DNA of 43,926 bases, taken from a virus. The DNA lies in UHGV virus genome UHGV-0164981; one strand, 5' to 3'. Positions within the stretch are counted from its first letter, which is position 1. The number at the start of each line of letters is the position of its first letter. Position numbers and translations under genes: made by a program. This document shows, piece after piece, positions 41,189 to 43,926 of this stretch. The notes under the pieces are model-generated. The model was given only the letters and a program-made list of their open reading frames with translations, was not told the DNA's origin and did not search any database.

Positions 41189-41710
41189 ATGGTTACTACA
41201 GTAATTACTTTCCCTGCGTATGTAGGGGCAAAAATCTGCAGGGCTAAAAATGATGTGCGCTACTATTTGAACGCTTTTTACATAGACCCTGAAGGATTGA
41301 TAGTGTCTACGGACGGTCATAGATTGTTCTGCGACAATGTGAAGACCAATGTTGAGAAAGGGACTCTCATAGACATCAAAGGGAGAGAGCCTTCTAAATT
41401 TAACTACGCAGAGGTAAACCACGACAACGGCAGTGTAACTTTCTATGACGATAATCGTGCGCTTATATGCACGCTTCCGGTAGATGTTGTAGAAGGAAAC
41501 TTTCCTGACTGGAGACGCGTGGCGAACATCACACCGGGTGTTGTCGATAGTATAGGGTTCACTCTGCGCTATTTGGCAGACGCGTACAAGATTTCTAAGG
41601 CATACAAAAATGAAATTGCTCGTTTCGATTTCCAGGACCAAACCAGAGGATGTAAAATACTATTTTCAAACACGGCCTTTATGGTGTTAATGCCTGCGCG
41701 ATTTAAATAA
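41189..41710 (+). CDS. hypothetical protein encoded by a plus-strand moron inside the head module
   Basis: 173-aa ORF with AGGAG RBS, own promoter and terminator; no recognisable motifs, no TM segment or signal peptide. Confidence 0.55.
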   Translation: MVTTVITFPAYVGAKICRAKNDVRYYLNAFYIDPEGLIVSTDGHRLFCDNVKTNVEKGTLIDIKGREPSKFNYAEVNHDNGSVTFYDDNRALICTLPVDVVEGNFPDWRRVANITPGVVDSIGFTLRYLADAYKISKAYKNEIARFDFQDQTRGCKILFSNTAFMVLMPARFK

Positions 41711-41714
41711 AACT

Positions 41715-41737
41715 AAGGCCCCATAATGGGGCCTTTT
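41715..41737. terminator. bidirectional hairpin AGGCCCC-ATAAT-GGGGCCTTTT
   Basis: Between the convergent 41189-41710 (+) and 41739-42197 (-) genes. Confidence 0.6.
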
Positions 41738-41738
41738 A

Positions 41739-42197
41739 TCATTCTGTCTTAGAGACCTTCGCCGCTTTGCTTACGGCCTCTGCACCATCGGCATCAGTAA
41801 CTTTAACGAAGTATTCACCAGCCGCATTAACAGTCAGAGACAGAGCCTCTTCCGGGGCGTTCACCACTTCCTTCCCGTCTTTGTACCAGGTCAGTACATA
41901 CGGCGCTTTACCCGCCTTAACTTCGACGGTGATGGTGGCGCTACCGTCGACCAGCTCGGTGTCTTTCGGTTGCACAGAGAAATACACATCACCAGCATCT
42001 GCCAGATACGGAATCTCATAAAGCATACCAGCAGCAGAGAGTGCGATACCGGTCTTGTCCGCATACGGCATCTCGTCTACAGGTGTACCTAGTACACTTT
42101 CATCTTCAACGTAGGTTACGTTCTCACCAGAACCGGATACACGGGCGTACTGGACTACGCGACGCGACGGCACATCAGTTACTTTAAAAAAGCCCAT
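41739..42197 (-). CDS. Ig-like domain protein (possible capsid decoration)
   Basis: 152 aa; C-terminal APYVLTWYKDGKEV...AGEYFVKVTDADGAEA fits an Ig-like signature; second such protein in the virion module. Confidence 0.5.
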   Translation of the reverse strand: MGFFKVTDVPSRRVVQYARVSGSGENVTYVEDESVLGTPVDEMPYADKTGIALSAAGMLYEIPYLADAGDVYFSVQPKDTELVDGSATITVEVKAGKAPYVLTWYKDGKEVVNAPEEALSLTVNAAGEYFVKVTDADGAEAVSKAAKVSKTE

Positions 42198-42200
42198 AAA

Positions 42201-42824
42201 CTAAACCTCTTTCATTGAGTTAATCTTACGTAAGACGCCTTCGAAAAGGCGTGGGTCTATGCTATCGCAAAGACCTTTGTATTCATATGCTAATTCAATT
42301 TTTCTATGAAACCATGCTACGTGTGCCTCTTGAGCGGTTTCGTAAGCGCCTATTTGTTCAGATACGCCATCCACGGATACTTGAGCGATGAATCTTTTCT
42401 TTTGTTTATGGAAATGTACGCCGAGTGGGTGTTCGCCTCGAAGAGCGTCGTGGGCTGTTAGGAAAGTATTGAGGGATTTAGGGATGAAAACACAGTTAGA
42501 AGCATCGTAAACCTTATTTCCCGGGTTAAGTAAATCCTTATCTATCTGCCACCCAGGTACATAAAAATCATCAAACCAGACCTTGAAATTACTGAACACC
42601 AACCAATCGTCCGACACGCGGCAACCTATATAAGTTCTGTTTCTTTGCTGCCATTTCTTGTCGTAGCACCTCTTTAACATGTTCTTCCATACGGCGTAGG
42701 ACGCTATATGCACCCCTCCGCAACTTATTGGTGAAACATCGTTAATACCCACACCAAAAACAATTCCCATATTAAACCCTATAAGAAAACCCCATGAAGA
42801 TTGGTCGATGCCAGAGATAGGCAT
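42201..42824 (-). CDS. putative homing endonuclease-like DNA-binding protein with AP2-type domain
   Basis: 207 aa; C-terminal KKRFIAQVSVDGVSEQIGAYETAQEAHVAW resembles an AP2 DNA-binding domain; N-terminal half with conserved aromatic/Cys pattern; free-standing between two structural genes. Confidence 0.4.
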   Translation of the reverse strand: MPISGIDQSSWGFLIGFNMGIVFGVGINDVSPISCGGVHIASYAVWKNMLKRCYDKKWQQRNRTYIGCRVSDDWLVFSNFKVWFDDFYVPGWQIDKDLLNPGNKVYDASNCVFIPKSLNTFLTAHDALRGEHPLGVHFHKQKKRFIAQVSVDGVSEQIGAYETAQEAHVAWFHRKIELAYEYKGLCDSIDPRLFEGVLRKINSMKEV

Positions 42825-42894
42825 ACCTTCATGGGGTTATATTCTTTCTCTATTTTTAGTAGTTCACCGACCAAAGCTAGCTACTAGATATACT

Positions 42895-43875
42895 TTATAC
42901 CGACCTAAGATATTCAGCAACCCTGTTATCTAACGCCGCCATCTCCTTCAAGGTTAAAGGTCTACCAAAAGCGTCGACGGATATTACCCGGAATTCCTCT
43001 GGGGATATCCCACTATTCCTGAATATAGCACCGCGGGTAGGTCCGAGTGCTTCATCCACGAACCATGCCGGTTGCTGTTTCAGGAACTCGTAATAGGTGG
43101 TGTCTGCGCTTACCTGCATACCGCCGTCCGCACCCTTAGCCGCGCGTTTTGCACCTTTATCTAGGAAGTCGAACTCCGAACTGATTACCGGTGCAGTGGT
43201 ACTTCGACATCCAAAATGGGCGGGGGGCATCGGACCTTTACCGATTTCCCACGTCATCCCGTCTCTGGCCCTGCAAATCGTACTGGTACGACTGTCCAGC
43301 GTTGACACCCATTCGTATTTCTCGATGATGTCGTCGTTCTGGCGGTATGTCTCGTTGCGGGCTTCGTTGGATACGTGAGACAGCGCGGTGCGGATTACCG
43401 TAGCCGCGTTGCGTTCAGAGATGTCCGCCAGCCCACCAGCGCCTACGACATTTTTAACAATCTGCCGTGTGGTTTGGCCCTGAACAAACCCCATCTTAAC
43501 GCCGGTTACGAGGCGCGCGGCCTCCGTTTCACCCCAGCCTGCCATCAGCTTAGTGAAATCGACGGGCTTGTCGCTTAATGATAAGGGTTGAAACTCGGCA
43601 GCGGACCACACCTGTTCGGCGGTAGGCGTAACAAATTCCGCGTCAACGTTGGCGGTCAGTGTTTTTACGTTCCACTCAGCCTCATATGCGGCCAGTTCCT
43701 TAAGGTCTTCTGCCAGTTTTGTTTGCCAGTCACCTGTAAGCCCGGTTAATGCTTCTTCGAGGTCGCGTAACAGTTTATTCAGTCGCGCAGTGCTTCGCCC
43801 GTCATCGCCGAAAAGCAGCACCTGCCGTTTGATTTCGTCCCGCATCTCCTGAATAAACGGTGCGAGGTCTTTCAC
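42895..43875 (-). CDS. head morphogenesis protein (MuF / SPP1 gp7-like minor head protein)
   Basis: 326 aa; C-terminal region (WVSTLDSRTSTICRARDGMTW...PPAHFGCRS) resembles the conserved C-terminal motif of MuF-family proteins. Track start is a GTG; true start uncertain (possible internal ATG 10 codons downstream). Confidence 0.55.
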   Translation of the reverse strand: MKDLAPFIQEMRDEIKRQVLLFGDDGRSTARLNKLLRDLEEALTGLTGDWQTKLAEDLKELAAYEAEWNVKTLTANVDAEFVTPTAEQVWSAAEFQPLSLSDKPVDFTKLMAGWGETEAARLVTGVKMGFVQGQTTRQIVKNVVGAGGLADISERNAATVIRTALSHVSNEARNETYRQNDDIIEKYEWVSTLDSRTSTICRARDGMTWEIGKGPMPPAHFGCRSTTAPVISSEFDFLDKGAKRAAKGADGGMQVSADTTYYEFLKQQPAWFVDEALGPTRGAIFRNSGISPEEFRVISVDAFGRPLTLKEMAALDNRVAEYLRSV

Positions 43876-43926
43876 TTCGCCGGATGCGGCGCGTTGCAGC
43901 CATATCTGGTGGCTGATTAGAGATGT

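Follow-up and report, generated by a model that had tools for sequence, protein, structure and literature searches.

The 207-codon open reading frame at positions 42201..42824 (minus strand) of the window, the 43,926-nucleotide stretch of phage DNA analysed here, is quite probably a free-standing homing endonuclease gene (HEG) of the IPA-HNH family, lodged at the junction of the MuF-like and Hoc-like genes of Guernseyvirinae phages. The assignment was drawn from sequence comparison. The gene is rare at its site, an intact empty site is found in relatives, an identical cassette sits in divergent backgrounds, with flanks that differ by ~10-15%, and the 3' end of the MuF-like gene next to it is recoded. 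These features support an earlier suggestion, made from the letters of the window alone, that the gene is a mobile insertion of the homing-endonuclease type. On the same comparisons the mobile unit is ~0.83-0.9 kb long and not the 2.6 kb that this sequence-only reading had proposed.

Gene context, start codon and family membership

The window derives from a Kagunavirus (Guernseyvirinae) coliphage. Over the segment 41000-43926 it shares ~97% identity with Escherichia phage vB_EcoS_fPoEco01, and 247 records of Escherichia and Salmonella phages were matched by the same segment. The ORF list places a 207-aa frame at the expected position on the minus strand, and between it and the MuF-like gene there is indeed a spacer of 70 nt (42825-42894, 35.7% GC). 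Both neighbours were also named correctly by the sequence-only reading. Upstream lies a MuF-like head-morphogenesis gene, the body of which occupies 43033..43926 on the minus strand (PF04233, E 8.5e-13; phrog_241, E 2.3e-139); its start must fall beyond position 43926 because the fPoEco01 homologue is 1044 nt long. Downstream lies a Hoc-like Ig-domain head decoration gene (41739..42197, minus strand; phrog_3945, E 3.8e-84), which is outside the mobile unit and is 100% identical to that of the relative Ivi as far as the junction. It is followed by the Rz/Rz1 spanins, the scaffold gene and the major capsid gene, and the neighbours are co-directional with the endonuclease gene. GC content is ~0.42-0.44 across the endonuclease gene against 0.52-0.57 in the flanks; taken over the cassette it is 0.42, where the window as a whole has 0.51 and the genes on either side have 0.52-0.55. 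No paralogues of the endonuclease gene were found within the window, and a regular-expression search of the window ORFs for canonical HNH motifs gave nothing convincing.

The encoded protein is 100% identical to PE1_004 of fPoEco01, annotated "putative HNH endonuclease", and ~97% identical to the "HNH endonuclease" of phage Schulenburg. It matched phrog_953 ("HNH endonuclease", E 3.3e-79), while Pfam, NCBIfam and PADLOC scans of the window protein gave no match. A dN/dS of 0.06 between the window and Schulenburg copies indicates purifying selection on the gene.

The 207-aa frame exists as an ORF; as a gene it is probably read 18 codons too long. The true start is probably M19, which would give a coding sequence of 189 aa at 42201..42770 (minus strand). 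The equivalent of M19 is the start in most homologues, the Schulenburg annotation is 189 aa long with its ribosome-binding site and start placed at the homologous position, and in phage pink a stop occurs within the codons upstream of the M19 equivalent. In the predicted model, residues 1-16 are disordered, with pLDDT <50, and the first 18 codons of the longer reading coincide with a conserved covarying hairpin. A probable ribosome-binding site (AGGG, 6-nt spacing) and the M19 ATG (42770-42768) can be read from the sequence at 42768..42781 on the minus strand.

The IPA-HNH family was defined by Barth, Dunham and Seed in 2023 on gp59, gp115-116 and gp209 of ICP1 (PMC10448857). As set out in the sections of that paper covered here, its members have an N-terminal HNH-like domain that is invisible to the Pfam HNH_3 model and a C-terminal AP2 domain, and they are free-standing genes near essential genes, at boundaries of genetic exchange (PMC10448857). 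The window protein carries a C-terminal AP2 domain; its HNH-related N-terminal domain goes unseen by HNH_3 and the protein is homologous to ICP1 proteins; and the gene is free-standing, between MuF and Hoc in the head module, near essential genes and at a recombination boundary. The ICP1 homology was seen by BLASTP (E 6e-18, residues 42-188) to an ICP1_2006_B protein with the motif LDKD...GNK.Y...C.F.P...N and an AP2 tail, which from its position we infer to be gp209. The window protein also matched multi-copy genes of the Rheinheimera Barba phages, which the same sections also name (PMC10448857).

Distribution and boundaries of the cassette

The outcome that would have refuted the sequence-only reading, lack of a nuclease fold together with conservation of the gene in every relative at this position, did not occur. 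A copy at the MuF/Hoc site was present in nine of the 363 related records that match the MuF tail (~2.5%; seven records from five phages and two of pink), and the nuclease fold discussed below is plausible. The five distinct phages that carry the cassette DNA are fPoEco01, fFiEco02, 536P11, K1ind3 and Schulenburg; Salmonella phage pink has a 52%-identical homologue at the same site. The possibility that the pink copy is a decayed pseudogene was ruled out, as it is an intact 189-aa ORF that has been annotated only in part. On metagenomic phage contigs, homologues of 60-74% identity are in every case flanked by MuF and a Hoc-sized gene; for those of ~40% identity the flanking genes are other conserved ones (MazG/dNMP kinase/PolA or PhoH).

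Comparison with HEG-less relatives, which had been put forward as a check, defined the insertion site. MuF abuts Hoc in Ivi, Snoke, Golestan, Bas73 and SETP13. At these empty sites the Shine-Dalgarno sequence of Hoc is located inside the MuF tail, and the stop codon of MuF overlaps the start of Hoc, as seen in Ivi. At the junction of the endonuclease and Hoc-like genes in the window (42192..42215, minus strand; read from the sequence, with the Hoc ATG at 42197), the Shine-Dalgarno sequence of Hoc (AAAGAGG) is instead supplied by the final codons of the endonuclease gene (..MKEV*), and the C-terminal ..SMKEV is kept in same-site homologues.

The window and Ivi are 100% identical over 41860-42179 and 43060-43539; what sets them apart is the gene itself and the final 46 codons of MuF. 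These codons and the stop (42895..43032, minus strand) form a recoded 3' end that is co-inherited with the endonuclease gene: 32 of the 46 differ from those of Ivi (22 synonymously, 10 non-synonymously), with 100% identity over the ~500 nt beyond them. Only in HEG+ phages is the recoded tail at least 94.6% identical to that of the window; the figure for pink is 79.6%, and the other 356 records lie at 60-80% (73-76% among those listed). Positions that are fixed in the five empty sites and changed in all HEG+ alleles are clustered in the last ~85 nt of MuF. The cleavage or recognition site is predicted to lie in the HEG-less MuF stretch that matches 42895..43032, a candidate target defined solely by the positions that differ between HEG+ and HEG-less alleles.

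Sharp boundaries were seen in other comparisons as well. The window and K1ind3 are 100% identical over 42180-43099 (~920 bp) and ~83-88% identical outside it; the chance of finding 920 identical bases at 13% divergence is ~2e-56. The Schulenburg cassette is 95% identical to that of the window, yet its Hoc flank is identical to the window's. Breakpoints in the identity profiles fall at ~42198 and ~43032-43100. They delimit a mobile unit of ~835 bp (42198-43032, 42% GC), or of up to ~920 bp by the K1ind3 comparison, that holds the last 46 MuF codons, the leader and the endonuclease gene. Recombination without a nuclease could in principle yield the same mosaic.

The sequence-only reading had joined the Ig-like gene, the spanins and a "moron" to the endonuclease gene as one inserted block of about 2.6 kb, and this part of it fell. 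HEG-less relatives, and Jerseyvirus as well, have the Hoc-like gene and the spanins next to MuF, and in more distant relatives that place is taken by a whole lysis cassette. A clamp-like ORF (41189-41710, plus strand) is a separate indel, and its presence is not tied to that of the endonuclease gene: in K1ind3 only the endonuclease gene is there, in Ivi only the clamp ORF. A single insertion made up of the Ig-like gene, the spanins, the clamp-like ORF and the endonuclease gene was therefore rejected, and neither the Ig-like gene nor the spanins nor the moron belongs to the mobile unit.

What is left is sporadic presence with an intact empty site in close relatives, and horizontal spread with co-conversion of flanking sequence. 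As far as alignments can tell, such a pattern is what a free-standing homing endonuclease classically leaves when it cuts the neighbouring gene in naive genomes and enters them together with a resistant flank.

Protein domains and the structured leader

Two domains were delimited in the protein: an N-terminal IPA-type HNH-like domain (residues 19-130; 42435..42770, minus strand) and a C-terminal AP2 DNA-binding domain of three strands and a helix (residues ~133-181; 42282..42428, minus strand). The AP2 signature that had been noticed earlier is real at the level of the family and of the structure, although the window protein itself has no Pfam AP2 match even at E<=0.1. PF00847 was matched by 13 of 33 homologues, and a profile built from the 33 matched the plant AP2 proteins WRI1 (7wq5, E 5.8e-5) and ERF1. 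No Pfam domain other than AP2, HNH_3 included, was found in any of these 33 homologues.

Conservation within the N-terminal domain points to a putative active-site motif, D95-K96-D97...N103...Y106...C111...N119 (42468..42542, minus strand). Its seven residues are invariant or nearly so in the 33 homologues and are kept in ~94-99% of 157 distant domains (from the 150 best of 23,455 matching cluster representatives). The model of the domain ends in a strand, a loop, a strand and a helix; the motif falls where strand 1 ends, in the loop and in the opening turn of the helix of this putative beta-beta-alpha unit. D95, D97, N103 and N119 occupy the expected Asp/Asn ligand and loop-Asn positions of the predicted fold, and these residues would bind metal. 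The position of the HNH general-base His is taken by Lys: K96 is present in all 33 homologues and in 149 of the 157 distant domains.

Searches for a structural or sequence link to characterised nucleases gave a less definite picture. Foldseek of the N-domain model against the PDB had a best E of 2.9, which is not significant, and the weak matches were mostly HNH domains. With phmmer and with whole-protein and N-domain profiles, PDB sequences were matched through AP2 only, with no match for the N-domain. Profiles of the N-domain (25 and 182 sequences) compared by hhalign with I-HmuI alone and with 39- and 120-member family profiles were not significant. The GenBank notes of the fPoEco01 and Schulenburg depositors give HHpred values of 97-98% to I-HmuI; we count these as not reproduced, because our own I-HmuI profile comparisons were not significant. 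A nuclease fold is plausible, and the conserved motif looks like a live active site; the nuclease chemistry of this family without the canonical His is putative. The IPA N-terminal domain occurs in >23,000 sequence clusters and has no curated model.

The ~105 nt from the MuF stop to M19, which had been taken for a spacer, is, on comparative evidence, a conserved structured leader with two covarying hairpins. Hairpin 1 (42858..42885, minus strand) has a 5-bp covarying stem; among 12 distinct sequences each of its five pairs shows changes in both partners. Its loop, CTAGCTTTGGTCGGTGAA (42863-42880), is 18 nt long and invariant. Hairpin 2 and a U-rich tract occupy 42781..42836 on the minus strand (hairpin 42790-42836). 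The hairpin has a 10-bp outer stem, in which 4 of the 10 pairs are compensated, and an invariant 5-bp inner stem, and it is kept in all homologous loci. It contains the first ATG (42824) of the 207-aa ORF, and the U-rich tract and then the ribosome-binding site of M19 follow it. Over the 12 distinct sequences, 98.8% of the cells are paired, compared to 30-40% when the partner columns are slid, and changes on both sides were seen in 9 of the 20 leader pairs. The folded leader has an MFE of -40.2 kcal/mol (z -2.5).

The 18-mer CTAGCTTTGGTCGGTGAA occurs once in the window. All seven loci at which it was found in IMG/VR lie between a MuF tail and an IPA-HNH gene, as do 9 of the 16 in a metagenome collection; the other seven are without hairpin 2, MuF or endonuclease and are about at chance level for that database. 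By the same kind of comparison the leader is better conserved than the ORF behind it. At two loci (L022 and L024) a leader that is nearly the same as that of a third (L011) stands before an endonuclease that shares no more than 40% identity with the window protein.

Rfam matches to 42600-43100 were at chance level only. When 41600-43200 was scanned for promoter and terminator consensus sequences, the spacer showed no sigma-70-like promoter, and hairpin 2, the stem of which has an internal loop, was not flagged. With its U-rich tract, hairpin 2 resembles a terminator or attenuator. Perfect complementarity links the loop core UUUGGUCG to CGACCAAA, the invariant internal loop of hairpin 2, and could reflect either a pseudoknotted attenuator or an operator for the AP2 domain. 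Our best guess is that the leader is an attenuator that would hold expression of the endonuclease low in the late operon. Three copies of TTTGGTNGR were also considered as AP2 operator sites. This idea was rejected because the copy in the MuF tail is explained by Phe-Gly-Arg-Pro codons and is missing from the more distant HEG+ loci. It could be speculated that the leader is an undescribed cis-acting RNA/DNA element of the homing cassette and, in addition, that the IPA N-terminal domain is a His-less beta-beta-alpha-Me nuclease with Lys/Tyr chemistry; we regard this combined proposal as tentative and rather doubtful.

Proposed mechanism, rival explanations and known systems

The homing reading can be written as a short series of steps. 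A carrier phage and a HEG-less relative would co-infect one cell. The AP2 domain would then recognise a sequence within the final ~85-135 nt of MuF in its HEG-less form, a highly conserved stretch, and the N-terminal domain would nick or cut nearby. Recombinational repair from the carrier would copy the gene, the leader and the cleavage-resistant MuF tail into the empty site, and the product of this repair would be the ~835-bp co-conversion unit that is observed. The cassette appears to be built to limit harm to the host operon, a view that is partly inferential. The MuF tail is swapped for a mostly synonymous version, Hoc receives its new Shine-Dalgarno sequence from the endonuclease's own last codons, and the structured leader with its terminator-like hairpin would probably keep expression of the endonuclease low.

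One alternative, which we consider unlikely, is that the protein is a nuclease-dead AP2 DNA-binding protein on a degenerate HNH scaffold, a regulator or silencer like CapR/CasPR that was spread by ordinary homologous recombination. Every member examined has Lys where the canonical His would be, sequence profiles gave no significant link to any HNH nuclease of proven activity, and the invariant complementary 8-mers of the leader are possible operator half-sites, all of which would suit such a regulator. There is also precedent for it, as HEG-derived AP2/CapR domains act as pure DNA-binding repressors according to the parts covered of two sources (10.64898/2026.02.23.707548; PMC10448857). However, the polar D-K-D, N, Y, C, N motif falls exactly on the metal-finger positions of the predicted beta-beta-alpha fold, and its ~94-99% conservation in distant relatives is unexpected for a dead active site. 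The absence of the His is in itself compatible with activity, since PacI is an active His-less beta-beta-alpha-Me nuclease with Asp and Asn ligands (PMC4081073). The strict link between the gene and the recoded MuF tail, with sharp co-conversion boundaries, is the footprint of break-induced homing, and the window protein has no CapR domain.

It is still less probable that the gene is an ancestral accessory gene, inherited vertically, lost in most lineages and no longer mobile. The cassette is 100% identical across phages whose flanks differ by 12-17%, and its boundaries are sharp. Ivi matches the window on both sides yet has no cassette and has the common MuF tail, which simple deletion could not restore, and the low GC of the whole cassette, the MuF tail included, points to its import as one unit. 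What speaks for the ancestral view is the occurrence of 52-74%-identical homologues at the same MuF/Hoc junction in distantly related phages, which argues that the tie of the gene to this site is old. We give almost no credence to a third proposal, a packaging-associated HNH protein that would assist the terminase in the manner of HK97 gp74. The gene is absent from ~97% of the related phages, which package normally; it is separated from the terminase genes by the portal and MuF genes; and the P22-type small terminase in the record annotation suggests headful rather than cos packaging. These points stand against the location of the gene within the head/packaging module and the assignment of such a role to other Kagunavirus HNH genes, Gp45c and Gp49c of fBC-Eco01 (PMC9825357).

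As a finding, a homing endonuclease gene at this site is ordinary, because fPoEco01, fFiEco02 and Schulenburg already have identical or nearly identical genes with the annotation HNH endonuclease, and the family has had its name since 2023. The structured leader may be the only part that is new. The locus is of value as a clean case from nature, homing by a free-standing endonuclease of a small siphovirus, for which public data hold the exact empty site, a sharp ~835-bp co-conversion unit, a recoded tail of an essential gene and the replacement of a neighbour's ribosome-binding site. The HEG+ phages fPoEco01 or K1ind3 set against HEG-less Ivi provide a cheap system for studying His-less IPA cleavage and the function of the leader. 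There is also a warning here for annotators, as MuF tails and capsid-module mosaics in therapeutic Kagunavirus phages would have been shaped by this homing cassette.

Several known systems resemble the cassette in part. The HNH-AP2 endonucleases of cyanobacteria, ciliates and phages (Magnani et al., 2004, as cited in PMC10448857, ref. 45, and in PMC3022922) likewise join a nuclease-type N-terminal domain to AP2 in a mobile gene; their HNH domains are reportedly of the canonical His-containing type, whereas the window family has Lys at the His position. The Seg and Mob homing endonucleases of T4-type phages are intergenic, cut the HEG-less allele of a neighbouring gene and spread with co-conversion of flanking markers, the target in the carrier being different, a general picture that PMC10448857 summarises. 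They are GIY-YIG enzymes or combine a canonical HNH with a zinc finger, and their cleavage and homing have been shown experimentally. The likeness of the window gene to them is one of mechanism and not of family, and for the window gene homing is deduced from sequences.

Of the nucleases compared for their active sites, I-HmuI, the intron-encoded HNH nicking endonuclease of SPO1 (PDB 1u3e), has a catalytic His and a different DNA-binding part. In the hhalign comparison, which was not significant, D95-K96 fell on its D74-H75, GNK on GNK and N119 on N96. PacI (PDB 3m7k / 3ldy) has Tyr in place of the general-base His and binds one metal via Asp and Asn; this restriction enzyme is a homodimer and has two Cys4 zinc sites (PMC4081073). 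Sequence identity to PacI is 12%, and the phage domain is without the Cys4 sites and has the invariant Lys at the His position.

The CasPR anti-CRISPR repressors and CapR proteins, encoded by phages or phage satellites, have AP2 or other DNA-binding domains of the HEG type, and the CasPRs are defined by the zinc-finger domain CapR together with AP2, as described in the parts covered of two sources (10.64898/2026.02.23.707548; PMC10448857). CasPRs are without an HNH-like domain, and the window protein, conversely, is without CapR and has a distribution with a homing signature. A search for CapR/DUF723 gave no match in the window protein, and PF05265 was matched in one distant relative only (P0032).

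The window protein is only ~27% identical to the ICP1 copies that define the IPA-HNH family, and the literature covered, including the sections consulted of the family-defining paper (PMC10448857), reports no cleavage by any IPA-HNH member. The Kagunavirus genes and the MuF/Hoc junction of Guernseyvirinae do not appear in the searched text and supplements of PMC10448857, nor do these mention a conserved structured leader like that of the window cassette. As far as those sections describe the ICP1 genes, the window gene shares their architecture and, like them, stands free beside essential genes, where it marks a boundary of genetic exchange.

A conserved structured leader upstream of the endonuclease gene

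The sequence-only reading described the DNA upstream of the endonuclease gene as an A/T-rich spacer. We find instead a conserved structured leader (42781-42885, minus strand) consisting of two hairpins, both with compensatory base changes, followed by a U-tract. An 18-nt loop of the leader, CTAGCTTTGGTCGGTGAA, is invariant. The same element occurs in the related phage and contig loci L004-L012, L022-L031, L033, L034, L036, L039, L041, and L044, and its sole context is a MuF tail on one side and a gene of the IPA-HNH family (N-terminal HNH-like domain, C-terminal AP2 domain) on the other. No Rfam family was found for this element.

The two hairpins could also contact each other. The loop core UUUGGUCG (within 42863-42880, minus strand) is perfectly complementary to the 3' internal loop of hairpin 2, CGACCAAA, at about 42800-42807 on the same strand. 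Both segments are invariant, and covariation is therefore uninformative on their pairing; the variant at locus L036, CGGCCAAA, would keep a U-G pair. One possibility for this complementarity is that the two segments form a pseudoknot; another is that they could be a pair of inverted half-sites in the DNA.

Different endonuclease ORFs behind one leader

In L022 (about 276-926) and L024 (about 752-1402), the IPA-HNH ORF is just 40% identical to the protein encoded in the window, compared to 69% for the ORF in L011 (3881-4573). All three loci share the MuF/Hoc site, and the leader of L022 and L024 is nearly the same as that of L011. Because ORFs of such different identity follow nearly the same leader, the endonuclease ORFs have apparently been swapped; the leader would thus appear to be the constant part, with the ORFs behind it exchanged. 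An intact IPA-HNH homologue of approximately 189 aa, 52% identical, is encoded in Salmonella phage pink (L005, 2503-3066, minus strand), where the annotation includes only the last 75 codons, as a hypothetical protein, and leaves the remaining interval unannotated. The pink copy and the homologous protein P0017 are almost identical over their C-terminal ~40 aa and divergent in their N-terminal domains.

The N-terminal domain (residues 19-130, window 42435-42770) belongs to a very large family: at E ≤ 1e-3 it comprises 23,455 cluster representatives (50% identity), of which 9,835 remain at the stricter E ≤ 1e-10. Some proteins of the family possess two copies of the domain. Pfam, NCBIfam, and PADLOC hold no model for it.

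The MuF-like gene as a target

The MuF-like gene (42895-43926, minus strand) extends past the end of the window. Its homologue in the relative fPoEco01 is 1044 nt long, and the true start must therefore lie beyond 43926; on these grounds we rejected the GTG at 43875 given in the ORF list. The recoded tail of the gene (42898-43032) includes the codons AGG, AGA, ATA, and TTA, which are rare in E. coli, and has a GC content of 0.47 as compared to 0.55 across the remainder. Rare codons and low GC are consistent with import of the tail, together with the endonuclease gene, from a donor of lower GC.

Escherichia phage Snoke (L017) has an annotated intein (2010-2639) within its copy of this MuF gene, some 100 codons upstream of the position occupied by the endonuclease cassette. 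Two distinct types of selfish element thus target the 3' third of MuF.

A clamp-like ORF as a separate indel

On the opposite (plus) strand, a 173-aa ORF (41189-41710; GC 0.40-0.45) lies beside a bidirectional terminator-like hairpin (41715-41735). It is a ~597-bp indel relative to K1ind3, a relative with the endonuclease gene, and its presence or absence among Kagunavirus phages is independent of that gene. Public records name it variously as a sliding clamp or a RusA-like resolvase. Its product weakly resembles the DNA polymerase III beta clamp in the central domain of the latter (phrog_3007, E 1e-35; TIGR00663, E 8e-4; PF02767, E 0.005).
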